Positions 10,034-64,000 of a stretch of DNA of 64,000 bases are shown piece after piece. A program made the translations under genes and the position numbers. How positions within the stretch are numbered: the first letter of the stretch is position 1; each line of letters starts with the position of its first letter. Source of the stretch: Escherichia coli (GTDB lineage: Bacteria > Pseudomonadota > Gammaproteobacteria > Enterobacterales > Enterobacteriaceae); assembly GCF_022846255.1 (NCBI RefSeq), contig NZ_AP025682.1. One strand, written 5' to 3'. The notes under the pieces were generated by a model that saw only the letters and a program-made list of their open reading frames with translations, did no database searches and was not told the origin of the DNA.

Positions 10034-11431
10034 ATTTTTACCCGAGTCGCTAATTTTTGCCGCAAGGTGCTAAGCCGCGAGGAAAGCGAGGCTGAACAGG
10101 CAGTCGCCCGTCCACAGGTGACGGTGATCCCGCGTGAGCAGCATGCTATTTCCCGCAAAGATATCAGTGAAAATGCCCTGAAGGTAATGTACAGGCTCAA
10201 TAAAGCGGGATACGAAGCCTGGCTGGTTGGCGGCGGCGTGCGCGACCTGTTACTTGGCAAAAAGCCGAAAGATTTTGACGTGACCACCAACGCCACGCCA
10301 GAGCAGGTGCGCAAACTGTTCCGTAATTGCCGCCTGGTGGGTCGCCGTTTCCGTCTGGCTCATGTGATGTTTGGCCCGGAGATTATCGAAGTTGCGACCT
10401 TCCGTGGACATCACGAAGGTAACGTCAGCGACCGCACGACCTCCCAACGCGGGCAAAACGGTATGTTGCTGCGCGACAACATTTTCGGCTCCATCGAAGA
10501 AGACGCCCAGCGCCGCGATTTCACTATCAACAGCCTGTATTACAGCGTGGCAGATTTTACCGTCCGTGATTACGTTGGCGGCATGAAGGATCTGAAAGAC
10601 GGCGTTATCCGTCTGATTGGTAACCCGGAAACGCGCTACCGTGAAGATCCGGTACGGATGCTTCGCGCGGTTCGTTTTGCCGCCAAATTGGGCATGCGCA
10701 TCAGCCCGGAAACCGCCGAGCCGATCCCACGCCTGGCAACCTTACTGAACGATATCCCACCGGCACGTCTGTTTGAAGAATCGCTGAAACTGTTGCAAGC
10801 GGGCTACGGTTACGAAACCTATAAGCTGCTGTGTGAATATCATCTGTTCCAGCCGCTGTTCCCGACCATTACCCGCTACTTCACGGAAAATGGCGACAGC
10901 CCGATGGAGCGGATCATTGAACAGGTGCTGAAGAATACCGATACGCGTATCCATAACGATATGCGCGTGAACCCGGCGTTCCTGTTTGCCGCCATGTTCT
11001 GGTATCCACTGCTGGAGACGGCACAGAAAATTGCTCAGGAGAGCGGCCTGACCTATCACGACGCTTTCGCACTGGCGATGAACGACGTGCTGGACGAAGC
11101 CTGCCGTTCACTGGCGATCCCGAAACGTCTGACTACGTTAACCCGCGATATCTGGCAGTTGCAGTTGCGTATGTCCCGTCGTCAGGGTAAACGCGCATGG
11201 AAACTGCTGGAGCATCCTAAGTTCCGTGCGGCATACGACCTGTTGGCCTTACGAGCCGAAGTTGAGCGTAACGCTGAACTGCAACGTCTGGTGAAATGGT
11301 GGGGTGAGTTCCAGGTTTCCGCGCCGCCAGACCAAAAAGGGATGCTTAACGAACTGGATGAAGAACCGTCACCGCGTCGTCGTACTCGTCGTCCACGCAA
11401 ACGCGCACCGCGTCGTGAGGGTACCGCATGA
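10034..11431 (+). CDS. pcnB: Poly(A) polymerase I
   Basis: ORF track 10013..11431 (TTG); conserved N-terminus (M)[13 protein letters not shown] begins at ATT 10034-10036 with GAGG 6 nt upstream, giving 465 aa; nucleotidyltransferase motif [17 protein letters not shown]; basic C-terminal tail. Confidence 0.85.
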
Positions 11432-11907
11432 CAGTGGCGTATATTGCCATAGGCAGCAATCTGGCCTCTCCGCTGGAGCAGGTCAATGCTGCCCTGAAAG
11501 CATTAGGCGATATTCCAGAAAGCCGCATTCTTGCTGTTTCTTCGTTTTACCGCACCCCACCGCTGGGGCCGCAAGATCAACCCGATTACTTAAATGCCGC
11601 CGTCGCGCTGAAAACCACTCTTGCCCCTGAAGAGCTACTCAATCACACACAGCGTATCGAATTGCAGCAAGGTCGCGTCCGTAAAGCTGAACGCTGGGGA
11701 CCGCGCACGCTGGATCTCGACATCATGCTGTTTGGTAATGAAGTAATAAATACCGAACGTCTGACCGTTCCGCACTACGATATGAAAAATCGCGGCTTTA
11801 TGCTGTGGCCACTGTTTGAAATTGCGCCGGAATTGGTATTTCCTGATGGCTTATCATTAGTTGAAGCTCTACAGGCAAAAGGCTTTAATGAATTAGATAA
11901 GTGGTAA
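11428..11907 (+). CDS. folK: 2-amino-4-hydroxy-6-hydroxymethyldihydropteridine pyrophosphokinase (HPPK)
   Basis: ORF 11428..11907 (159 aa) [31 protein letters not shown]; start overlaps pcnB stop (ATGA). Confidence 0.9.
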
Positions 11908-24707: not shown

Positions 24708-25478
24708 TTAGCTACGCAAACCACGTCCACGTTGGATCAGCGACCAACAGATCAAATAAAACGCCACAATAAAGACCACCAGTACGCCAAAGGTAGTGAC
24801 CAGCGGAACATCATTGATACCGAGGAAGCCGTAGCGGAAACCACTGATCATATAAACGATTGGGTTCAGGTGCGACAGCCCTTGCCAGAACGGCGGCAAC
24901 AAAGTCAGGGAGTAAAACACCCCGCCCAAATACGTGAGTGGCGTTAACACAAAGGTTGGCACCAGGCTGATGTCATCGAACGTTTTGGCAAACACGCCGT
25001 TCAGCAAACCCGCAAGGGAGAATAGCACCGCAGTGAGCACCAGGGTTAAGGCAACGAATACCCACGAATGCACCTGAAACGGCACAAAAAACAGTGAAAT
25101 TGCCGTCACCAAAATACCAACAAACAGACCACGCGCCACGCCACCACCGACATATCCGGCAATAATGACATGAGTCGGAACCGGCGCTACCAGCAGCTCT
25201 TCAATATTACGCTGGAACTTGGCACCAAAAAATGATGACGCGACGTTAGCGTAGGCGTTGGTGATCACCGACATCATGATCAGCCCCGGTACGATGAACT
25301 GCATGTAGCTGAAGCCATGCATATCGCCAATACGCGAACCAATCAGGTTACCGAAGATAATAAAGTAAAGGGTCATGGTGATGACTGGCGGCACCAGCGT
25401 CTGCACCCAGATACGCATAAAGCGATGGATCTCTTTCGCCCAGATGCTTTTTAGCGCCACCCAGTAAAGATGCATCAT
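24708..25478 (-). CDS. yadH: ABC transporter permease (ABC-2 family)
   Basis: ORF 24708..25478 (256 aa); multi-pass hydrophobic; start overlaps yadG stop by 4 nt. Confidence 0.85.
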   Translation of the reverse strand: MMHLYWVALKSIWAKEIHRFMRIWVQTLVPPVITMTLYFIIFGNLIGSRIGDMHGFSYMQFIVPGLIMMSVITNAYANVASSFFGAKFQRNIEELLVAPVPTHVIIAGYVGGGVARGLFVGILVTAISLFFVPFQVHSWVFVALTLVLTAVLFSLAGLLNGVFAKTFDDISLVPTFVLTPLTYLGGVFYSLTLLPPFWQGLSHLNPIVYMISGFRYGFLGINDVPLVTTFGVLVVFIVAFYLICWSLIQRGRGLRS

Positions 25479-26401
25479 GTGCGATCTCCTTGTTTTTCAT
25501 TAACCAGTGAAACAAACAGCTCTTCCAGACGGTTAGCTTTGTTACGCATACTTAATACCTGAATGCCCTGCTCACTTAACTGCGTAAATACGCTGTTGAT
25601 GCCCTGCTCACGCAGCACTTCAACTTCCAGCGTGGCGGTATCTACCAGTCGATACTGATAGCCATCGAGCTTCGGTAACGGACTTTTCGGTGCGAGATCG
25701 AGAATAAAGGTTTCTGATTTCAGCTTCGCCAGCAGCGCCTTCATCGAAGTATTTTCCACCAACTCACCGTGTTGAATAATGCCGATATTGCGGCACAGCA
25801 TTTCTGCTTCTTCCAGGTAGTGTGTGGTGAGAATGATGGTGGTGCCTTTGTCGTTTAAATCCTTCAAAAAGCCCCACATTGAGCGGCGAAGTTCAATATC
25901 CACGCCTGCGGTCGGTTCGTCGAGAATCAGTAGTTTAGGTTCATGCATTAACGCACGGGCAATCATTAAACGGCGCTTCATCCCGCCAGATAACATACGC
26001 GCACGTTCGTTGCGTTTTCCCCATAGATCGAGTTGTTTAAGATACTTTTCGCTGCGAATGTACGCTTCTTTGCGCTCCACACCGTAGTACCCTGCCTGAT
26101 TCACCACAATTTGCTGCACGGTTTCAAACGGGTTGAAGTTAAATTCCTGTGGCACCAGACCCAACTGACGTTTAGCGTTTACGACATCTTTCTCGAGATC
26201 GTAACCAAATACGCTGACCCGCCCGGAGGTTTTATTTACCAGAGAGCTGATAATACCGATAGTGGTCGATTTTCCGGCCCCGTTCGGCCCGAGAAGCGCA
26301 TAAAAATCACCCGCTTCGACCTGCAAATCGATTCCACGAAGCGCCTGAACGCCGCCTGGATAGGTTTTTTTAAGCTGTTGAAGTTCCAGTGCAATGGTCA
26401 T
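25475..26401 (-). CDS. yadG: ABC transporter ATP-binding protein
   Basis: ORF 25475..26401 (308 aa); Walker A GPNGAGKST, signature LSGGMKRR, Walker B LLILDEPT. Confidence 0.88.
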   Translation of the reverse strand: MTIALELQQLKKTYPGGVQALRGIDLQVEAGDFYALLGPNGAGKSTTIGIISSLVNKTSGRVSVFGYDLEKDVVNAKRQLGLVPQEFNFNPFETVQQIVVNQAGYYGVERKEAYIRSEKYLKQLDLWGKRNERARMLSGGMKRRLMIARALMHEPKLLILDEPTAGVDIELRRSMWGFLKDLNDKGTTIILTTHYLEEAEMLCRNIGIIQHGELVENTSMKALLAKLKSETFILDLAPKSPLPKLDGYQYRLVDTATLEVEVLREQGINSVFTQLSEQGIQVLSMRNKANRLEELFVSLVNEKQGDRT

Positions 26402-45835: not shown

Positions 45836-45995
45836 GGGTTATTCCTTATCTATCTAATAACGTTGAGTTTTCTGGAACCTGTCCCATTGAACTCTCACCG
45901 GAAAGCTCAATAAGACAGGTTCTACGTTTAGTTGCCGCGCTTTTATATGCGCTTGATTTACAACATCTTCTGGATAATTTTTACCAGAAAAATCA

Positions 45996-48716: not shown

Positions 48717-49571
48717 TTACACCAACGCCCCGTAAATCGTCAGTAGCGCAATTACCACCACGACCACGAACGAGGTTTTCTTCGCCATTGAAACCGCTGC
48801 CTTTGGCGTCTCCACCTTATCGACATGCGGTTCACGCGCCAGAGAGAACTGTGCCAGACGCGTTAATACCTGATATTGCGAAGTATGGAAATCACCCAGC
48901 GAAGCAAACCAGGCCGGTAACGCTTTCTCACCATGACCGATCAAGGCATATACCACACCCGCAAGACGAACCGGCACCCAATCCAGTACATGAAGCACGC
49001 CATCAATGCCGGACTGTAAACGATGATGCGGCGTCTGGTATCGCGCCAGCCAGTATTGCCATGCACGCAAAAACGCATACCCCATCAGCGTAACGGGTCC
49101 CCAGGTTCCCCCCACAATCAGCCAGAACAGCGGAGCAAGATAAAAACGAAAGTTAATCCACAGCAATGCATTTTGCAGCTCACGCAAATACTCACGTTCA
49201 TCGCAGCCTGCCGGGACGCCGTGAATCATGGTGAGTTCGCCAGCCATCGTGGCACGGGCATGGCTATCATTACGTGAAGCAGCTGTCAGATAAGCATGAT
49301 AATGAAGACGAACTTTACCTGCGCCAATACACAGCAAACCAATCAGCAGCCACACCAGCAGCGTGGGAACGTTGAACAATACTCCCTGCAATGCGCGTAA
49401 CAGTAAAAAAGTCACGCCCATCGCAATAATGGTCATGCCTAATGTGCGCCCGAGAGAAAAATGTTTCACCCGCCGAAAGAACGCTTCAAGACGATGATCA
49501 AGCTGCCAGTGCTCGCCCAACTTAAACAGGCGCTCGAAAATTAACACCAGTAAGGTTGTAAATAGCGTCAT
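48717..49571 (-). CDS. ampE: Inner-membrane protein AmpE
   Basis: Within ORF 48717..49610; ATG 49571 after AGGAG gives [23 protein letters not shown] (284 aa); start overlaps ampD stop (ATGA). Confidence 0.88.
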
Positions 49572-50119
49572 GTTGTCTCCTTGCTGACCAGTGCACGAAA
49601 CCGTGCCCAATCAAATGCAGGGCCGGGATCGGTTTTCCGATCCGGCGCAATATCACAATGGCCCGTCATGTTATTAGCGATATCTGGATAGCGATCAATC
49701 AGTGCCCGCGTAACCGCCGCAAGCTGTTGATACTGCGCATCGGTATACGCCAGCGTATCGGTGCCTTCCAGCTCAATCCCAATAGAAAAATCATTGCAGC
49801 GTTCACGCCCCTGATACTGAGAGACTCCCGCATGCCAGGCACGTTTATCGAAAGGAACATACTGGACTATTTCACCATCACGGCGAATCAAACAGTGAGC
49901 GGAGACGCGCAAATGGGCGATCTCAGCAAAGAAAGGATGTGCCTGCGGATCAATAGTTCCAGTGAATAATGCGTCGATCCACGGACCGCCAAACTCGCCT
50001 GGCGGCAGGCTAATATTGTGCACCACCAGCAGGGTGGGTGTTTCGTCATCCGGGCGGCAATCGTAATGTGGTGAGGGAACGCGGCGCGCGCCAACCAGCC
50101 ACCCCTGTTCTAACAACAT
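49568..50119 (-). CDS. ampD: 1,6-anhydro-N-acetylmuramyl-L-alanine amidase AmpD
   Basis: ORF 49568..50119 (183 aa) [45 protein letters not shown]. Confidence 0.92.
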
Positions 50120-50146: not shown

Positions 50147-51100
<954 letters not shown>

Positions 51101-51302
51101 TTGCTGACAGATTTATCCGCTCCATCGCGGGCGGATAATCTCCCCTTTCCCAACTTTCTTCGTAACGCCTCGCAAATTTCTTGTCTTTCGCTGCAACGTA
51201 ATAAAAAACTCCGGAAGCTGCTTTCCCGTTTCGTTTTTTGCCCCTCGCTTGTGCTGATGGCGTTTGCCAAAGTAGCGCCAACCAAATCAAGGAGCGAAAC
51301 AA

Positions 51303-51743
51303 ATGGACAAGCAACGCGGTTTTACACTTATCGAACTGATGGTGGTTATTGGCATCATTGCCATTTTAAGCGCCATTGGTATTCCCGCTTATCAAAACTA
51401 CCTGCGCAAAGCCGCACTCACCGACATGCTACAAACCTTTGTGCCTTACCGTACCGCCGTAGAGTTGTGCGCGCTGGAACATGGTGGATTAAATACCTGC
51501 GACGGTGGCAGCAATGGCATTCCTTCGCCTACCACCACCCGCTATGTTTCAGCCATGAGTGTGGCAAAGGGCGTGGTGTCGCTGACCGGGCAAGAAAGTC
51601 TCAATGGGCTAAGCGTCGTCATGACACCGGGTTGGGATAACGCAAACGGCGTCACCGGCTGGACGCGTAACTGCAATATTCAAAGTGACAGCGCATTGCA
51701 GCAAGCCTGCGAAGATGTCTTCCGCTTTGATGACGCCAACTAA
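51303..51743 (+). CDS. ppdD: Type IV prepilin-like protein PpdD (major pilin homolog)
   Basis: ORF 51303..51743 (146 aa); AAGGAG upstream; class III leader MDKQRGFTLIELMVVIGIIAILSAIGIPAYQNY. Confidence 0.85.
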   Translation: MDKQRGFTLIELMVVIGIIAILSAIGIPAYQNYLRKAALTDMLQTFVPYRTAVELCALEHGGLNTCDGGSNGIPSPTTTRYVSAMSVAKGVVSLTGQESLNGLSVVMTPGWDNANGVTGWTRNCNIQSDSALQQACEDVFRFDDAN

Positions 51744-51752
51744 GGAGCGGCA

Positions 51753-53138
51753 ATGAATATTCCACAGCTCACCGCCCTGTGTCTGCGTTATCAGGGAGTC
51801 TTGCTGGATGCCAGCGAAGAGGTGGTTCATGTTGCGGTAGTCGATGCACCTTCGCATGAGCTACTGGACGCATTGCATTTCGCTACCACCAAACGTATTG
51901 AGATCACCTTCTGGACGCGCCAACAAATGGAAGGTCACGCCAGTCGCACACAACAGACATTGCCCGTAGCTGTTCAGGAGAAGCATCAGCCCAAAGCAGA
52001 GTTGCTGACTCGAACGTTACAATCTGCGCTAGAACAACGCGCGTCTGATATTCATATCGAACCAGCGGACAATGCCTACCGCATCCGCTTGCGTATCGAC
52101 GGCGTATTGCATCCTTTACCGGACGTTTCACCGGATGCCGGAGTCGCATTAACCGCCAGATTAAAAGTGCTGGGAAACCTGGATATTGCGGAACATCGCC
52201 TGCCGCAGGACGGGCAATTCACTGTCGAACTGGCAGGAAACGCCGTCTCATTTCGTATTGCGACCTTAGCATGTCGGGGTGGTGAAAAGGTGGTATTAAG
52301 GTTGTTACAGCAGGTGAACCAGGCACTGGATGTTAACACGCTTGGAATGCAGCCGTCACAACTGGTGGACTTTGCTCATGCCTTGCAACAACCACAGGGA
52401 CTGGTGCTGGTAACTGGCCCTACAGGCAGCGGCAAAACGGTCACGCTTTATAGTGCCCTGCAAATGCTGAATACCGCTGACATTAATATTTGTAGCGTCG
52501 AAGATCCGGTTGAGATCCCCATAGCCGGACTAAACCAGACGCAAATCCATCCGCGTGCCGGACTCACCTTTCAGGGCGTTTTACGTGCGTTATTGCGCCA
52601 GGATCCTGACGTCATTATGATCGGAGAGATCCGCGATGGCGAAACGGCAGAAATTGCCATTAACGCCGCACAAACGGGTCATCTGGTATTGTCCACCCTA
52701 CACACCAACTCCACCTGCGAAACGCTGGTACGTTTACAGCAAATGGGAGTCGCCCGCTGGATGCTCTCATCAGCGCTTACGCTGGTAATAGCCCAGCGTC
52801 TGGTACGCAAACTTTGCCCACATTGTCGCCGACAGCAAGGGGAGCCAATCCATATTCCAGACAATGTATGGCCGTCGCCGCTGCCCCGCTGGCAAGCACC
52901 CGGTTGTGTACATTGCTACCACGGTTTTTATGGTCGCACGGCCTTATTTGAAGTTCTGCCCATAACACCGGTCATACGTCAGCTTATTTCCGCTAATACC
53001 GACGTTGAATCGCTGGAAACGCACGCCCGACAGGCGGGTATGCGAACGCTTTTTGAAAACGGCTGTCTGGCCGTGGAGCAAGGCTTAACCACCTTTGAAG
53101 AGTTAATCCGCGTATTGGGGATGCCGCATGGCGAGTAA
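51753..53138 (+). CDS. hofB: Type IV pilus assembly ATPase (PilB/GspE family)
   Basis: ORF 51753..53138 (461 aa); Walker A GPTGSGKT; tetracysteine CPHC...CVHC. Confidence 0.85.
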   Translation: MNIPQLTALCLRYQGVLLDASEEVVHVAVVDAPSHELLDALHFATTKRIEITFWTRQQMEGHASRTQQTLPVAVQEKHQPKAELLTRTLQSALEQRASDIHIEPADNAYRIRLRIDGVLHPLPDVSPDAGVALTARLKVLGNLDIAEHRLPQDGQFTVELAGNAVSFRIATLACRGGEKVVLRLLQQVNQALDVNTLGMQPSQLVDFAHALQQPQGLVLVTGPTGSGKTVTLYSALQMLNTADINICSVEDPVEIPIAGLNQTQIHPRAGLTFQGVLRALLRQDPDVIMIGEIRDGETAEIAINAAQTGHLVLSTLHTNSTCETLVRLQQMGVARWMLSSALTLVIAQRLVRKLCPHCRRQQGEPIHIPDNVWPSPLPRWQAPGCVHCYHGFYGRTALFEVLPITPVIRQLISANTDVESLETHARQAGMRTLFENGCLAVEQGLTTFEELIRVLGMPHGE

Positions 53139-54330
53139 GCAACTCTGGCGCTGGCGTGGCATAACCGGCGACGGCAATGCGCAAGATGGGATGCTATGGG
53201 CAGAGAGCCGTGCTTTGCTGCTTATGGCACTACAGCAACAGATGGTTACCCCACTAAGCCTGAAGCGAATCGCCATCAATTCTGCGCAGTGGCGAGGAGA
53301 TAAAAGCGCGGAAGTCATTCATCAACTGGCGACGCTACTCAAAGCCGGGTTAACGCTTTCTGAAGGGCTGGCACTGCTGGCGGAACAGCATCCCTGTAAG
53401 CAATGGCAAGCGTTGCTGCAATCGCTGGCACACGATCTCGAACAGGGCATTGCCTTTTCCAATGCCTTATTACCCTGGTCAGAGGTATTTCCGCCGCTCT
53501 ATCAGGCGATGATCCGCACGGGTGAACTGACCGGTAAGCTGGATGAATGCTGCTTTGAACTGGCGCGTCAACAAAAAGCCCAGCGTCAGTTGACCGACAA
53601 AGTGAAATCAGCGTTACGTTATCCCATTATCATTTTAGCGATGGCAATCATGGTGGTTGTGGCAATGCTGCATTTTGTTCTGCCGGAGTTTGCCGCTATC
53701 TATAAGACCTTTAACACTCCGCTACCGGCGCTAACGCAGGGGATCATGACGCTGGCAAGCTTTAGTGGCGAATGGGGTTGGTTGCTGGTGCTATTCGGCT
53801 TTCTGCTGGCGATAGCCAATAAGCTGCTGATGCGCCACCCAACCAGGCTTATCGCACGGCAGAAATTGCTGTTACGCATCCCGATTATGGGTTCACTGAT
53901 GCGGGGACAAAAACTCACGCAGATCTTTACGATTCTGACGCTGACACAAAGTGCAGGCATTTCTTTTTTACAGGGCGTTGAGAGCGTCAGAGAAACAATG
54001 CGCTGCCCGTACTGGGTGCAACTTCTGACACAAATCCAGCACGATATCAGTAACGGTCACTCCATCTGGCTGGCGCTAAAAAATGCCGGTGAGTTTAGCC
54101 CGCTCTGTTTGCAATTAGTGAGAACAGGAGAGGCATCCGGCTCGCTGGATCTCATGTTAGACAACCTCGCCCATCATCATCGGGATAACACAATGGCGCT
54201 GGCGGATAACCTCGCAGCCTTACTGGAACCGGCGTTGCTGATCATAACGGGAGGAATTATCGGTACGCTGGTGGTGGCAATGTATCTGCCAATTTTCCAT
54301 TTAGGCGATGCGATGAGTGGAATGGGATAA
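53128..54330 (+). CDS. hofC: Type IV pilus inner-membrane platform protein (PilC/GspF family)
   Basis: ORF 53128..54330 (400 aa); overlaps hofB 3' end by 11 nt; polytopic. Confidence 0.85.
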   Translation: MASKQLWRWRGITGDGNAQDGMLWAESRALLLMALQQQMVTPLSLKRIAINSAQWRGDKSAEVIHQLATLLKAGLTLSEGLALLAEQHPCKQWQALLQSLAHDLEQGIAFSNALLPWSEVFPPLYQAMIRTGELTGKLDECCFELARQQKAQRQLTDKVKSALRYPIIILAMAIMVVVAMLHFVLPEFAAIYKTFNTPLPALTQGIMTLASFSGEWGWLLVLFGFLLAIANKLLMRHPTRLIARQKLLLRIPIMGSLMRGQKLTQIFTILTLTQSAGISFLQGVESVRETMRCPYWVQLLTQIQHDISNGHSIWLALKNAGEFSPLCLQLVRTGEASGSLDLMLDNLAHHHRDNTMALADNLAALLEPALLIITGGIIGTLVVAMYLPIFHLGDAMSGMG

Positions 54331-54364
54331 CGCTGGCGTGTTGCTCCACGCCAGCGTTGGTATA
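54331..54364. terminator. Bidirectional intrinsic terminator between convergent hofC and guaC
   Basis: Stem CGCTGGCGTG / CACGCCAGCG (54331-54340 / 54347-54356) immediately after hofC stop, followed by TTGGTATATTA. Confidence 0.6.
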
Positions 54365-55408
54365 TTACAGGTTGTTGAAGATGCGGTTTTCTTGTTCCTG
54401 CACACGGATAAATGTGGTGCGTTTGGTCAGTTCTTTCAGGCGTGAAGCCCCAACGTATGTACAAGCTGAACGCAGGCCGCCCAAAATATCACGCGCGGTA
54501 TTTTCAACCGGGCCTCGCAGCGGCAGCTTAACGGTTTTACCTTCTGCTGCGCGATATTCCGCAACGCCGCCAACGTGACGTTTCATCGCAGACTCTGAGC
54601 TCATGCCGTAGAACAACATAAATTTCTCGCCGTTCTCCTCAACGATGCGACCGCCGCTCTCTTCGTGGCCCGCCAGCATGCCGCCAAGCATTACGAAATC
54701 GGCACCGCCGCCAAAGGCTTTCGCGACATCGCCCGGCGTGGTGCAGCCGCCATCGCTGACGATCATTCCGCCCAGACCGTGCGCAGCATCGGCACATTCG
54801 ATTACCGCAGAAAGTTGCGGATAACCGACGCCTGTTTTGACGCGAGTTGTACAAACAGAACCTGGGCCAATGCCAACTTTAACGATATCGGCACCGGAGA
54901 GGATAAGCTCCTCACACATTTCACCAGTCACTACGTTGCCAGCACAAATGGTTTTGGTCGGCCACGCTTCACGCGCTTTCGCAACGAACTGCACGAAGTG
55001 TTCGGAATAACCATTCGCCACGTCAATACAAACGAAATTTAATGCCGGGTTCAGGTCGAGAATCTGTTTAGTTTTTTCGAAATCCGCATCAGACGTGCCG
55101 GTAGAAACCATCACATGTTTCAGCACATCAGCGGAAGAATTGTTGATAAACGCTTGCCACTCTTCGACAGAATAGTGTTTATGCACAGCAGTCAGAATAT
55201 CAAAAGAAGCCAGCGCAGAGGCCATAGAAAATGTGCCTACGGTGTCCATATTTGCGGCAATAATCGGCACGCAGGACCAGCTCTGACCTGAATGTTTGAA
55301 GGTGAATTGACGTTCCAGTTCAACATCGGAACGGCTTTTAAGAGTGGAGCGTTTAGGGCGGATGAGAACGTCTTTAAAACCTAACTTCAGATCTTCTTCA
55401 ATACGCAT
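54365..55408 (-). CDS. guaC: GMP reductase
   Basis: ORF 54365..55408 (347 aa) [41 protein letters not shown]; IMPDH/GMPR fold. Confidence 0.93.
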
Positions 55409-55632
55409 GTGCGGATTCCTGGGGTTAATGGCTATAAGGGTAAGAGCGCAACTCCAGTGACGTCATCATACGCACTAATCAATGCGGCGCAAGACTGCGA
55501 AATTGTCTTTTTTTACGCTACAATCCCATAAATTTACCTGGTAAATAGTGAGCGAACGTTTCATCAATTTCGCTTTCGTGCGCTCATTTTTAACGTTTTG
55601 ATAATCATGATGAATTCCCGGGAATATAAATT

Positions 55633-56253
55633 ATGAGGTATATAGTTGCCTTAACGGGGGGCATTGGCAGTGGCAAGAGTACCGTTGCCAATGCGTTTGC
55701 TGATCTCGGAATTAACGTCATTGATGCCGATATTATTGCGCGTCAGGTGGTTGAACCAGGTGCACCTGCGCTACATGCCATTGCTGATCACTTTGGCGCT
55801 AACATGATTGCTGCTGATGGAACATTGCAGCGCCGGGCCTTGCGCGAGCGGATCTTCGCCAACCCGGAAGAGAAAAACTGGCTTAACGCCCTGCTGCATC
55901 CGCTGATTCAGCAAGAGACGCAACACCAGATCCAGCGAGCTACTTCCCCCTATGTACTATGGGTTGTGCCATTGCTGGTAGAAAACTCACTGTATAAAAA
56001 AGCGAATCGAGTGCTGGTGGTGGATGTCAGCCCAGAAACGCAACTTAAGCGCACCATGCAGCGCGACGATGTAACTCGCGAGCATGTCGAACAAATCCTT
56101 GCTGCTCAGGCAACGCGCGAAGCTCGCCTTGCCGTGGCAGATGACGTCATTGATAATAACGGCGCACCGGATGCTATCGCATCGGATGTTGCCCGCCTGC
56201 ACGCACACTATTTGCAGCTTGCGTCGCAGTTTGTCTCACAGGAAAAACCGTAA
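55633..56253 (+). CDS. coaE: Dephospho-CoA kinase
   Basis: ORF 55633..56253 (206 aa) [22 protein letters not shown] (P-loop). Confidence 0.92.
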
Positions 56254-56996
56254 TGCAGACCCAGGTCCTTTTTGAACATCCACTAAATGAAAAAATGCGT
56301 ACATGGCTGCGCATTGAGTTTTTGATTCAGCAACTCACCGTTAATTTACCCATCGTTGACCACGCTGGCGCGCTGCATTTCTTCCGTAATGTCAGCGAAT
56401 TACTGGATGTTTTCGAGCGCGGCGAAGTCCGCACTGAGCTGTTGAAAGAACTTGACCGGCAGCAACGTAAACTCCAGACCTGGATTGGCGTGCCCGGCGT
56501 GGACCAGAGCCGTATTGAAGCATTAATTCAGCAGTTAAAAGCGGCGGGGAGCGTATTAATCTCCGCGCCGCGTATCGGGCAATTTCTACGTGAAGATCGT
56601 TTGATTGCTCTGGTGCGTCAGCGACTGAGCATCCCGGGCGGCTGTTGCAGCTTTGATTTACCTACATTGCACATTTGGCTGCATCTACCCCAGGCGCAGC
56701 GCGACAGCCAGGTAGAAACCTGGATTGCCAGCCTGAACCCGCTTACCCAGGCACTTACCATGGTGCTGGATTTAATTCGCCAGTCGGCCCCCTTCCGTAA
56801 ACAAACCAGCCTGAATGGTTTTTATCAGGATAACGGTGGCGATGCCGACTTGCTGCGCCTGAATCTGTCGCTCGATTCACAGCTTTATCCGCAAATTTCC
56901 GGTCATAAGAGCCGTTTTGCCATTCGTTTTATGCCGCTGGACAGTGAAAACGGACAGGTACCAGAACGTCTGGATTTCGAACTGGCCTGTTGCTAA
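56253..56996 (+). CDS. zapD: Cell division protein ZapD (FtsZ-associated)
   Basis: ORF 56253..56996 (247 aa) [28 protein letters not shown]; start overlaps coaE stop by 1 nt (TAATG). Confidence 0.88.
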
Positions 56997-57005
56997 GGAG
57001 TAAAA

Positions 57006-57203
57006 ATGTCAGAAACTATTACGGTGAATTGCCCAACCTGCGGGAAAACGGTGGTGTGGGGTGAAATCAGCCCGTTTCGGCCATTTTGCTCCAAACGTTG
57101 TCAGCTGATCGACCTCGGAGAATGGGCTGCTGAAGAAAAACGAATCCCCAGCAGTGGCGATCTTTCCGAAAGCGATGACTGGAGCGAAGAGCCAAAGCAG
57201 TGA
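57006..57203 (+). CDS. yacG: DNA gyrase inhibitor YacG (zinc-finger protein)
   Basis: ORF 57006..57203 (65 aa) [40 protein letters not shown]; AAGGAG upstream. Confidence 0.88.
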
Positions 57204-57213
57204 CATTCTATCT

Positions 57214-57690
<477 letters not shown>

Positions 57691-57704: not shown

Positions 57705-57732
57705 AAAAAAGGCGCAGAATCCTGCGCCTTTT
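57705..57732 (-). terminator. Intrinsic terminator/attenuator between secA and mutT
   Basis: Stem GGCGCAG / CTGCGCC (57711-57717 / 57722-57728) flanked by AAAAAA (57705-57710) and TTTT (57729-57732); minus strand reads hairpin then TTTTTT. Confidence 0.6.
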
Positions 57733-57749
57733 ACTTCAACTGTTAGCTT

Positions 57750-60455
57750 TTATTGCAGGCGGCCATGGCACTGCTTGTATTTTTTACCAGAACCACACGG
57801 GCAAGGATCGTTACGTCCTACTTTGCGTTCACCGGTTTGCGCCGCCAGTGCAGCTGCGGCTGCAGAGTCGTCATCCTGATGGCTAAGCTGCTGCATTTGC
57901 GCTAAACGCTCGGCTTCCATACGACGCTGTTGTTCCAGCTCCTCAACCTCTTCAGGCATACGTACCTGAACTTTGCTCAGCGTGCTGATAACTTCATATT
58001 TTAACGACTCCAGCATCGCTGCAAACATGGAGAACGATTCACGTTTGTATTCCTGCTTCGGATCTTTCTGTGCATAGCCACGCAGGTGGATACCCTGACG
58101 CAGATAGTCCATCGCAGCCAGGTGCTCTTTCCACAGAGAGTCAAGCGTTTGCAGCATGACGCCTTTCTCGAAGTGACGCATCATCTCAGCACCAACCACT
58201 TCTTCTTTACGCTGATACACTTCGATGGACTGTGCCAGAATGCGCTCACGCAGCGTCTCTTCATGCAGTTCTGGTTCTTTATCCAGCCACTCGGCAATTG
58301 GCAAATCGAGGTCGAAATCGTTCTTCAGACGTTCCTGCAGCCCCGGAATATCCCACATTTCTTCCAGCGACTGTGGCGGAATGTAGGCATCAATGGTGGC
58401 TTTGAACACATCTTCACGAATGCTGTTGATGGTTTCGCTCACATCGCTGACATCCAGCAGTTCGTTACGCTGGGAGTAAATGGCGCGACGCTGATCGTTA
58501 GCCACGTCATCATATTCCAGCAGTTGCTTACGAATGTCGAAGTTACGGCTTTCAACTTTACGCTGGGCGTTGGCAATCGCTTTGGTCACCCACGGGTGCT
58601 CAATGGCTTCGCCTGGCTTCATACCCAGTTTACGCATCATGCCGGATACTCGGTCGGAAGCAAAAATACGCATCAGCGCATCTTCCATCGACAGGTAGAA
58701 ACGGGAAGAACCAGCATCCCCCTGACGACCAGAACGACCGCGCAGCTGGTTATCGATACGACGGGATTCGTGACGTTCAGTACCGATGATATGCAGGCCA
58801 CCTGCTGCCAGTACCGCATCGTGACGTACCTGCCAGTCGGCTTTAATTTTTTCAATTTGCTCTGCAGTCGGATTTTCCAGCGCGGCAACTTCTGCCTGCC
58901 AGCTACCACCGAGCACAATATCGGTACCACGACCCGCCATGTTGGTCGCGATAGTCACCGCAGCCGGGTAACCTGCCTGAGCAACAATCGCCGCTTCGTT
59001 GGCATGGAATTTGGCGTTCAGGACGTTGTGCTTAATACCGGCTTTGGTCAGTTCATTTGACACCAGCTCCGATTTTTCGATGGAGATTGTACCCACCAGC
59101 ACCGGCTGGCCTTTCGCAGTACGTTCTTTGATATCTTCAATGATCGCCTGAATTTTTTCCGCTTCAGTCATGTAGACCAGGTCCGGCAAATCTTTACGAA
59201 TCATTGGACGGTTGGTCGGAACAACGACAGTATCCAGCTTATAGATGGAGCTGAATTCGAAAGCTTCGGTATCAGCAGTACCAGTCATCCCCGCCAGTTT
59301 TTCATACAGACGGAAGTAGTTCTGGAAGGTGATCGAAGCCAGCGTTTGGTTTTCGTTCTGGATCTGCACACCTTCTTTCGCTTCCACAGCCTGGTGCAGA
59401 CCATCGGACCAGCGACGGCCCTGCATGGTACGACCGGTGTGTTCGTCAACGATGATAACTTCACCATCTTTAACGATGTAGTCGACGTCGCGGGTAAACA
59501 GCGCATGAGCGCGCAGCGCCGCCGTTACGTGGTGCATCAGCATGATGTTGGCCGGAGAGTACAGAGACTCACCTTCATCCATGATGCCTTCTTTAACCAG
59601 CAGTTCTTCAATCAGAACCAGACCACGTTCGGTCAGGTTCACCTGGCGAGATTTTTCATCCACCGAGAAGTGGCCTTCGCCCTGGAAGGTTTCGGAGTCT
59701 TCTTTTTCCTGACGGATCAGGTGCGGAATAATTTTATTCACGCGTTTATACATTTCCGAGCTGTCTTCTGCTGGGCCGGAAATGATCAGCGGTGTACGCG
59801 CTTCATCGATGAGGATGGAGTCCACTTCGTCCACCAGCGCATAGTGCAGTTTACGTTGTACACGTTCTTCAGGGCTGAATGCCATGTTGTCGCGCAGGTA
59901 GTCAAAGCCGTATTCGTTGTTCGTACCGTAAGTGATGTCAGCAGCGTAGGCTTCACGCTTTGCCGGTGCTGGCATGCCCGGTAGGTTGATACCGACAGTC
60001 AGGCCAAGGAATTCAAACAGCGGACGGTTGTTTTCGGCGTCACGTTGCGCCAGGTAGTCGTTGACGGTAACTACGTGTACGCCTTTACCGGTTAGTGCGT
60101 TCAGGTAAGCAGGCAGCGTTGCGGTCAGGGTTTTACCTTCACCGGTACGCATTTCGGCGATGCAGCGTTCGTTAAGAACCATACCGCCGAGTAACTGAAC
60201 GTCGAAGTGACGCATGCCAAAGACGCGCTTACTTGCCTCACGCACCACGGCGAAAGCTTCCGGGATCAGATTTTCCAGCACTTCGCCTTTTTCCAGACGC
60301 GCACGAAACTCTGCGGTTTTCCCTTTCAGTTCTTCGTCGGAGAGTTTTTCCATCTCCGGTTCCATGGCATTGATGATGTTGACCACTTTGCGCATCCGGC
60401 GCAGGGTGCGATCGTTACGACTACCGAAAACTTTAGTTAATAATTTGATTAGCAT
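57750..60455 (-). CDS. secA: Protein translocase ATPase SecA
   Basis: ORF 57750..60455 (901 aa) [25 protein letters not shown]; C-terminal zinc-binding [17 protein letters not shown]. Confidence 0.96.
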
Positions 60456-62277: not shown

Positions 62278-63429
62278 TTAATCAGCTTGCTTACGCAGGA
62301 ATGCTGGGATATCCAGATAATCCGGCTCTTTCGCAGTTTGCGGCGCATTGTCATTCACGACTTTAGCAACCGGCTTCTGCTCCTGGGTCAGCGGAGCCAT
62401 ACCGTGCTGCTGGTAGCGATCCATCACTGGCTGCTGAACCTGCTTATTGGTCACCAGAGTGATTTCAGGACGTTTGTCCATGCCGATACCTGTCGCAACA
62501 ACAGTTACGCGCAGTTCGTCATTCATATCCGGGTCAAGAGAAGTACCGATAACCACGGTCGCGTTGTCGGAAGCAAATGCACGGATGGTGTTACCTACCG
62601 TTTCGAACTCATCCAGACGCAGGTCGAAGCCCGCTGTGATGTTTACCAGTACGCCGCGTGCGCCAGACAGGTCGATATCTTCCAGCAGCGGAGAAGAGAT
62701 AGCCATTTCAGCAGCTTCTTCCGCACGGTCTTCACCGCTCGCCACGCCAGAACCCATCATTGCGTAGCCCATTTCAGACATTACGGTGCGTACGTCTGCA
62801 AAGTCCACGTTCATCAAACCCGGACGAGTAATCAGTTCGGCGATACCTTGCACAGCGCCTTTCAGTACATCGTTCGCTGCGCCAAACGCATCCAGCAGGG
62901 AGATACCACGGCCCAGAACTTTCAGCAGTTTGTCGTTCGGGATAGTGATCAGAGAGTCCACATGCTTGGACAGTTCAGTGATCCCCTGCTCCGCGAATGC
63001 CATACGCTTCTTGCCTTCAAAGTTGAAGGGCTTAGTGACGACAGCAACGGTCAGGATACCCAAATCTTTTGCCACTTCAGCGACGACTGGTGCTGCACCT
63101 GTACCGGTACCACCACCCATACCCGCAGCAATAAAGACCATGTCTGCACCTTCCAGCGCCGCACGCAGTGCATCGCGATCCTCATCAGCCGCATTGCGGC
63201 CAACTTCTGGATTAGCGCCAGCTCCCAGTCCTTTGGTGATACCGCTACCGATTTGAATCGTCTGTCCAACCGCTGTTTTACGCAGCGCTTGTGCATCGGT
63301 ATTTACCGCGAAGAATTCAACACCTTCAATGCGCTCGCGCACCATGTGTTCAACAGCATTACCGCCGCCGCCGCCGACGCCGATGACTTTAATCACCGCG
63401 TCATTGGTAAGTTCCATTGGTTCAAACAT
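62278..63429 (-). CDS. ftsZ: Cell division GTPase FtsZ
   Basis: ORF 62278..63429 (383 aa) [30 protein letters not shown]; tubulin signature [10 protein letters not shown]; C-terminal [14 protein letters not shown]. Confidence 0.96.
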
Positions 63430-63489
63430 AGTTTCTCTCCGATTTGTGCCTGTCGCCTGAGGCCGTAATCATCGTCGGCCTCATAAAAA

Positions 63490-64000
63490 TTAAAACTCTT
63501 TTCGCAGCCAACTATTGAGTCGCTTGATCCACGAGCCAACTGATGCTGTAACACGTTTTTCTACTTCAGCTTCACCGTTAAGATGTGACTCTTTCCCGTA
63601 ATGAAGCAATCCCACCGCCGTCGAATAATACGGCTCCTGAGCATAATCCGTTAAACCGGTAATGTTCAGCGGCGCGCCGATACGCACCTGCGTATGAAAC
63701 ACGCGCTGAGCACAGGCTGCAAGACCTTCGATCTGCGCTGCGCCACCGGTTAATACAATGCCTGCCGCCAGGTGATGTTTAACCCCTTGTTGGCGAAGCT
63801 TTTCCTGCAACTGCAATATCTCTTCGTTGACCAGATTGAGCAGCTCGGTATAGCGCGGCTCGATCACCTCTGCCAGGGTCTGACGTTGCAGACTCCGCGG
63901 CGGACGACCGCCTACGCTCGGCACTTCCACGCTCTCATCTTTTCCAACGATGGAGCCCAGCGCACAACCGTGGCGAACTTTAATCGCTTCGGCGTCACTT
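63490..64000 (-). CDS. ftsA: Cell division protein FtsA, C-terminal ~170 codons (5' part lies beyond the right window edge)
   Basis: Minus-strand frame open from the window end to stop at 63490; C-terminus ...VGSWIKRLNSWLRKEF (membrane-targeting amphipathic helix). Confidence 0.9.
   Translation of the reverse strand, partial: SDAEAIKVRHGCALGSIVGKDESVEVPSVGGRPPRSLQRQTLAEVIEPRYTELLNLVNEEILQLQEKLRQQGVKHHLAAGIVLTGGAAQIEGLAACAQRVFHTQVRIGAPLNITGLTDYAQEPYYSTAVGLLHYGKESHLNGEAEVEKRVTASVGSWIKRLNSWLRKEF

Follow-up and report, generated by a model that had tools for sequence, protein, structure and literature searches.

Coupling of translation between neighbouring genes of E. coli has been described for trpE-trpD, trpB-trpA and galT-galK (Oppenheim and Yanofsky 1980; Aksoy 1984; Schumperli 1982; cited in PMC5318159). 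As these studies are cited there, stop and start codons of each pair overlap or abut within one operon mRNA, and dependence of the downstream gene on upstream translation was proven genetically. Two models of coupling are in use: either the terminating ribosome reinitiates at the downstream start, or the ribosome translating the upstream gene unfolds an inhibitory structure (PMC12548453). Native E. coli pairs with a spacing of -4 have been tested systematically only once, using hyfHI, astDB, ydbH/ynbE, menDH and bioBF, all of which are co-directional, share a 4-nt ATGA and carry SD motifs of varied strength within the upstream gene. Four of these five turned out to be coupled, three of them strictly and one to about 60%, while bioBF showed no coupling at all (Huber et al. 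2019, PMC6728339). Spacings of -4, -1 and -8 are enriched, and the efficiency of coupling drops as the overlap lengthens from -4 to -25 (PMC12548453). A spacing between -8 and +10 is regarded as predictive of reinitiation, -8 being already less efficient (Huber et al. 2023, PMC10666635). Ribosome profiling, finally, found relative translation efficiencies to be equally variable in overlapping and non-overlapping pairs (Burkhardt et al. 2017, PMC5318159).

The DNA analysed here, in the following referred to as the window, is a stretch of 64 kb of an E. coli chromosome. It is collinear with the fhuA to ftsA region of strain K-12 in reverse complement, its K-12 counterpart extending from about 105 to 169 kb. 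By means of tblastn searches with RefSeq-annotated proteins from two close genomes we placed 53 genes on the window. Direct reading of the sequence together with this gene map yields the following junctions, where negative spacings denote overlaps:

10034-11431, plus strand: pcnB
11428-11907, plus strand: folK
11428-11431, plus strand: ATGA common to pcnB and folK (-4)
11417-11421, plus strand: SD-like GAGGG at the pcnB-folK junction
25475-26401, minus strand: yadG
24708-25478, minus strand: yadH
25478-25475, minus strand: ATGA common to yadG and yadH (-4)
25491-25486, minus strand: SD motif AAGGAG at the yadG-yadH junction
49568-50119, minus strand: ampD
48717-49571, minus strand: ampE
49571-49568, minus strand: ATGA common to ampD and ampE (-4)
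49582-49577, minus strand: SD motif AAGGAG at the ampD-ampE junction
51744-51752, plus strand: 9-nt spacer between ppdD and hofB (+9; from the gene map)
51753-53138, plus strand: hofB
53128-54330, plus strand: hofC
53128-53138, plus strand: 11 nt common to hofB and hofC, ATGGCGAGTAA (-11), with the hofC ATG at 53128-53130 and the hofB TAA at 53136-53138
53117-53121, plus strand: SD-like GGGGA of hofC, 6 nt upstream of the ATG and within hofB Leu-Gly-Met codons
55633-56253, plus strand: coaE
56253-56996, plus strand: zapD
56251-56255, plus strand: TAATG, by which coaE and zapD have 1 nt in common (-1)
56240-56243, plus strand: SD-like AGGA at the coaE-zapD junction
56997-57005, plus strand: 9-nt spacer between zapD and yacG (+9; from the gene map)

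Gene names, coordinates and overlap lengths of the five overlapping junctions thus agree throughout with the original prediction, whose list did not contain the two 9-nt spacers. The start of yadH reads ATGATG. Use of the second ATG would lead to an overlap of -1, so that the two genes overlap with either start codon.

All five pairs have been tabulated before. Supplementary Table 2 of Huber et al. 2023 (PMC10666635) lists them for K-12 MG1655 as pcnB-folK (b0143-b0142), yadG-yadH (b0127-b0128), ampD-ampE (b0110-b0111), hofB-hofC (b0107-b0106) and coaE-zapD (b0103-b0102) with distances of -4, -4, -4, -11 and -1, respectively. Genes, gene order and distances of the window are the same, and only allelic differences are present. 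Since the table lists identical pairs and distances, the finding must be considered as already known, in fact as well as in interpretation. The three -4 pairs of the window share the ATGA architecture of the pairs assayed experimentally by Huber et al. 2019. None of those pairs, however, is a pair of the window, and hofB-hofC differs from them by its longer overlap in phase 1. As in trpE-trpD, trpB-trpA and galT-galK, as cited in PMC5318159, stop and start codons of the window pairs overlap or abut; genetic proof exists for the former, whereas coupling of the window pairs is presumptive. A literature search retrieved no published direct coupling test of these five pairs.

In prokaryotes at large (PMC10666635), the PcnB-FolK COG pair shows a median spacing of -1 (first quartile -4, n=351), the AmpD-AmpE pair of +1 (first quartile -4, n=100) and the pair of ABC ATPase and YadH permease of -3.4 (first quartile -4, n=4201). 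For PulE-PulF, which is flagged as a heteromeric complex, the median amounts to +4 (first quartile -4, n=1304). Being members of the GspE/PilB-GspF/PilC pairs of ATPase and platform protein (COG2804-COG1459) of type II secretion systems and type IV pili, hofB and hofC belong to genes which are adjacent and tightly spaced across prokaryotes. While spacings from -4 to +4 are the commoner ones in this group, the overlap in the hofBC lineage of enterobacteria is fixed at -11.

In the window, 5 of 34 co-directional junctions overlap (15%), and these are precisely the five pairs in question. As "approximately 15% of ORF pairs" overlap in E. coli (PMC5318159), this share is typical of the species and the number is not unusual. 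A total of 46 NTG codons that are out of frame begin within the last 33 nt of 52 gene ends, five of them in -4 and four in -1 geometry. ORFs of at least 100 codons are opened by such codons solely at the five junctions, where they comprise 159, 256 (or 255), 284, 400 and 247 codons in the order given above. Because no other NTG codon at a gene end opens an ORF of this size, the five overlaps represent real gene boundaries rather than chance motifs. The ten proteins concerned are 98.8-100% identical over their full length to RefSeq-annotated E. coli proteins. Nine of them give full-length NCBIfam matches, YadG matching solely sub-threshold models of ABC ATP-binding proteins. The same five overlaps appear in the RefSeq entries of other E. 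coli strains, and the same hofB-hofC geometry in that of strain A37.

Each of the five downstream start codons is the first ATG following an in-frame stop, at a distance of 4-32 codons. For ampE there is a single earlier TTG, which lacks an SD motif. The SD motifs of all five genes are located within the upstream gene, and the calculated energies of their duplexes with the 3' end of 16S rRNA amount to -6.2 kcal/mol for folK, -8.5 kcal/mol for both yadH and ampE, -5.5 kcal/mol for hofC and -4.3 kcal/mol for zapD. The median of all annotated starts in the window is -5.9 kcal/mol, compared to -2.2 kcal/mol for 928 internal ATGs. Full-length NCBIfam models of equivalog or subfamily rank align with FolK, YadH, AmpE, HofC and ZapD from residue 1; residues 1-256 of YadH, for instance, cover positions 2-257 of the 257 of NF011648, and residues 1-284 of AmpE positions 1-285 of the 285 of NF008219. 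The 158-residue chains of E. coli HPPK (FolK) crystal structures align to residues 2-159. In 14 HofC orthologues of 59-98% identity, M1, Q5, L6, W7, W9, G11, G16, G21 and W24 show no or almost no variation.

An in-frame ATG, GTG or TTG is present downstream of every annotated start, and one or more of the true starts might accordingly be located further 3', as for example at Met22 of HofC (53191), in which case there would be no overlap. We consider such a mis-annotation very improbable. The SD energies of the downstream candidates range from +0.7 to a mere -3.7 kcal/mol. Met22 of HofC is not conserved while residues 5-11 and 16-24 are, the GspF model TIGR02120 sets in at residue 7 of HofC, and the FolK structures start at residue 2. 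In addition, independent gene callers arrived at the same boundaries in six other taxa. Alternative downstream starts were therefore rejected on account of their poor SD complementarity and of the conserved N-terminal residues that would be lost, and the mis-annotation reading is already largely refuted. The five downstream starts are correctly placed. The view that the overlaps constrain the placement of start codons thus holds.

To follow the junctions across the Enterobacteriaceae, we collected loci by a search for HofC homologues and subsequent look-ups of exact proteins on their contigs, which gave E. fergusonii, Salmonella enterica, Citrobacter freundii, Superficieibacter electus, Enterobacter sp. 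and Intestinirhabdus alba. The -11 overlap of hofB-hofC and the -1 overlap of coaE-zapD are identical in all six. The -4 overlap of ampD-ampE is kept in each of the three taxa for which the flank was extended (Salmonella, Enterobacter and Superficieibacter). Three of the five geometries are thus conserved across enterobacterial genera. For pcnB-folK and yadG-yadH, the comparison beyond E. coli was drawn from the COG-pair medians given above. In the DNA alignment both the ATG of hofC and the stop codon of hofB are fixed, the latter being TAA in all but Superficieibacter, which has TAG. Variation is observed in the five bases between these two codons and in HofC residues 2-4. Residue 4 is Lys, Asn or Arg, since the stop codon embedded across codons 3 and 4 requires this. 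At the coaE-zapD junction, CA.AGGAAAAACC.TAATGCA (dots denoting two variable positions), every specified base is invariant in the seven taxa. Within the species, the 71-bp hofB-hofC junction is found at an identity of at least 95% in 5,416 of 5,426 complete E. coli genomes. Between ppdD and hofB most relatives show a spacing of +9, Intestinirhabdus one of -4. HofC itself evolves fast for a gene of the core region, its amino acid identity amounting to 75% with respect to E. fergusonii and 68-69% with respect to Salmonella; over the taxa in which HofC diverges, the coaE-zapD junction (56203-56292) is almost invariant.

HofB (RefSeq name gspE) is an assembly ATPase of the GspE/PilB family consisting of 461 amino acids. 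It matches the NCBIfam equivalog model NF007755 with 817.7 bits (cutoff 617), residues 2-460 covering positions 6-464 of the 465 of the profile. HofC, with 400 amino acids, is an inner-membrane platform protein of the GspF/PilC family and matches the equivalog model NF007861 with 651.4 bits (cutoff 401; residues 1-399 on positions 1-401 of 401). Position 1 of TIGR02120 aligns at its residue 7, its residues 64-395 align to Myxococcus xanthus PilC (3jc8), and PF00482 (T2SSF) is listed on its homologues. Exactly these sequences exist as the E. coli proteins WP_137501331.1 (HofB) and WP_137501330.1 (HofC). Under laboratory growth, hofBC is reported not to be expressed (Sauvonnet 2000; Sinha 2009). 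As hofC is in +1 phase relative to hofB, and as fused HofB-HofC proteins are contained in the databases, the overlap might be regarded as a programmed +1 frameshift site giving rise to a HofB-HofC fusion. The database "fusion", however, joins HofB residues 1-315 to HofC residues 41-400 and hence reflects an in-frame deletion, not a frameshift product. Inspection of 53120-53138 shows no slippery or shifty motif, the Rfam search gave no frameshift element, and a conserved ATG is situated exactly at the N-terminus common to all HofC orthologues. We rejected this reading, which is the most improbable of all those considered here.

The deletion allele deserves mention in its own right. The fusion (P0005), found in other E. 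coli strains, has 674 amino acids; the deletion corresponds to approximately 52698-53247 of the window and removes the C-terminal part of the ATPase along with the entire hofB-hofC junction. There are, moreover, HofC variants of 377 amino acids (P0001-P0004) with an internal deletion of 23 residues. Both kinds of variant are consistent with a dispensable and sometimes decaying system.

A scan of 50900-57400 revealed neither promoter-like nor terminator-like sites at the hofB-hofC and coaE-zapD junctions, the counts over the scanned region being at or below shuffle expectation. Published work regards pcnB-folK as an operon (PMC11954867). Given the overlap of the coding sequences, the outcome at the two scanned junctions and the published pcnB-folK operon, co-transcription, as put forward in the original prediction, appears to be a safe inference, and each of the five pairs is presumably read from one mRNA. 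The +9 spacers of ppdD-hofB and zapD-yacG are within the predictive range, so that both operons would constitute three-gene chains; +9 is also the median spacing of the ZapD-YacG COG pair (PMC10666635). No Rfam family maps to any of the five junctions. Matches at gathering level are found elsewhere in the window, namely PssrA (63421-63510, minus strand), tp2 (45838-45951, plus strand), STnc40 (57705-57774, minus strand), naRNA4 (CssrE; 57225-57301, minus strand) and ES036 (CssrF; 39775-39817, minus strand).

The gene guaC (54365-55408, minus strand) lies, on the opposite strand, between hofC and coaE, which is followed by zapD and yacG. According to a published table of COG pairs (PMC10666635), the PulO/PilD prepilin peptidase is commonly encoded directly upstream of CoaE with a median spacing of +4. 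The hof locus thus looks like a pilBCD-coaE-zapD-yacG cluster from which the peptidase gene at that position is missing.

[quoted passage not shown] A ribosome finishing the upstream gene would melt local structure over the downstream start region and terminate 0-8 nt from the downstream AUG. There, the same ribosome or its 30S subunit would reinitiate, or a fresh 30S subunit would bind to the exposed SD. Coupling of this kind should be strongest at the -4 and -1 pairs. The spacings of pcnB-folK, yadG-yadH and ampD-ampE (-4) as well as coaE-zapD (-1) fall inside the range from -8 to +10, that of hofB-hofC (-11) outside. The four short overlaps can therefore be rated as good candidates, and hofB-hofC, judged by geometry alone, as a weaker candidate for coupling. 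Since a terminating ribosome would have to move 8 nt backwards, coupling at hofB-hofC is probably less efficient than at a -4 junction.

To what extent the downstream starts may need an upstream ribosome can be estimated from their predicted accessibility. For each start the opening energy of positions -18 to +12 was computed in a context of 120 nt. Compared to a window median of 8.8 kcal/mol, the energies predicted for folK (19.2 kcal/mol, rank 2 of 53 genes) and hofC (16.0 kcal/mol, rank 4) are high. That of ampE (11.0 kcal/mol) is slightly above the median, and those of zapD (8.7 kcal/mol) and yadH (7.1 kcal/mol) are at or below it. Rank 1 is held by hofB, whose 20.0 kcal/mol, the highest value in the window, is not conserved in the relatives (5.4-11.2 kcal/mol). 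The value of hofC ranges from 11.2 to 16.2 kcal/mol in all seven taxa, versus 5.7-8.7 kcal/mol for zapD. The SD duplex of hofC is weak across the taxa (-2.4 to -5.5 kcal/mol) and is at background level (-2.4 kcal/mol) in Salmonella and Citrobacter. Applied to the seven taxa, RNAalifold yielded a consensus energy of -10.3 kcal/mol, of which the covariation term made up -0.02, and thus gave no support for a conserved RNA structure in the start region of hofC. As the consensus fold lacks covariation support, the opening energy of hofC may reflect nothing but the G+C-rich coding sequence. These predictions fit a dependence of hofC, and perhaps of folK, on upstream translation. Coupling would be expected to matter most for these two genes, the start regions of which have unusually high predicted opening costs, the SD of hofC being additionally weak in most genera. 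With their strong AAGGAG motif, yadH and ampE would probably initiate independently as well.

The latter consideration may be extended to all five pairs. The overlaps would then be by-products of genome compaction and of drifting stop and start codons, and each downstream gene would initiate de novo at its own SD irrespective of upstream translation. A recognisable SD does precede all five downstream starts, reaching -8.5 kcal/mol at the AAGGAG of yadH and ampE. The uncoupled bioBF pair, despite its -4 spacing (PMC6728339), and the similarly variable translation-efficiency ratios of overlapping and non-overlapping pairs (PMC5318159) point in the same direction. The K-12 table furthermore flags four of the five pairs as "CMPLX not", i.e. 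without known complex, yadG-yadH being the only one flagged as a complex (PMC10666635). Mere compaction, on the other hand, would hardly account for the exact retention of the -11, -1 and -4 geometries across genera in which HofC is merely 60-75% identical, nor for a hofC start predicted to be structured whose SD in Salmonella and Citrobacter does not exceed background. Four of the five tested -4 pairs were, after all, coupled (PMC6728339). On balance we regard independent initiation at all five junctions as unlikely and adhere to intra-operon junctions capable of coupling. The original prediction had taken the overlaps to indicate translational coupling. Coupling at the five pairs is indeed plausible, least certainly so for hofB-hofC, but that wording is too strong in view of the uncoupled bioBF, the variable efficiencies and a -11 spacing beyond the predictive range. 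An overlap permits coupling and does not demonstrate it.

For hofB-hofC a more specific proposal may be put forward, namely that the -11 overlap is an obligate reinitiation site at which ribosomes back up 8 nt to the hofC AUG. It is suggested by the strict conservation of the -11 overlap in spite of the fast divergence of HofC, by the weak or absent SD and by the predicted poor accessibility of the start. We put it forward tentatively, as a possibility that is less probable than not.

The pcnB-folK pair calls for caution of a different kind. The start codon of pcnB is ATT (10034-10036, plus strand). The corresponding AUU is an inefficient start leading to poor translation and is one of only two in E. 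coli, the other being that of infC (PMC5499595). Strict coupling would therefore tie the essential folK to the weakly translated pcnB. With a deliberately under-translated upstream gene and an essential downstream gene, the pair represents a natural test of how strict coupling is.

Some allelic features of the window are worth recording. The last approximately 20 residues of FolK (about 11845-11904, plus strand) differ from the K-12 and PDB sequence (…PDGEMLRQILHTRAFDKLNKW), while the protein as a whole is 100% identical to that of strain 8178. The 3' end of folK looks like a recombination boundary adjoining the variable yad fimbrial operon, in which a yadC-like adhesin is only 93% identical to its best match. 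AceF (41568-43157, minus strand) comprises 529 residues and two lipoyl domains, where 630 residues and three such domains are usual, owing to the in-frame loss of one lipoyl repeat of about 101 amino acids. As exactly this protein is present on 182 public contigs, complete E. coli genomes included, the short AceF represents an allele recurring in nature rather than an assembly error confined to the window. A 5-kb piece around hofB-hofC matches 5,424 of 5,426 complete E. coli genomes, the best DNA identity being 99.0%; for the first 25 kb of the window it is 98.8%. The best identity of the window to these 5,426 complete RefSeq genomes is thus only 98.8-99.0%, and the best-matching strains differ from one part to the other, while exact matches to window proteins exist in GenBank. 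This suggests either a lineage absent from that RefSeq collection or a mosaic of recombined segments.

The main value of the five overlaps concerns annotation quality, as they fix five downstream start codons. In addition, they support the operon calls ppdD-hofB-hofC, coaE-zapD-yacG, ampDE, yadGH and pcnB-folK. The hofB-hofC junction, moreover, constitutes a clean, natural and conserved phase-1 overlap of -11 that can be used to test how far backward reinitiation reaches. If reinitiation at this site were indeed obligate, supported coupling would extend past the limit of -8, and this in the less-studied +1 phase, and the ratio of ATPase to platform protein in the PpdD type IV pilus machine would be fixed thereby.
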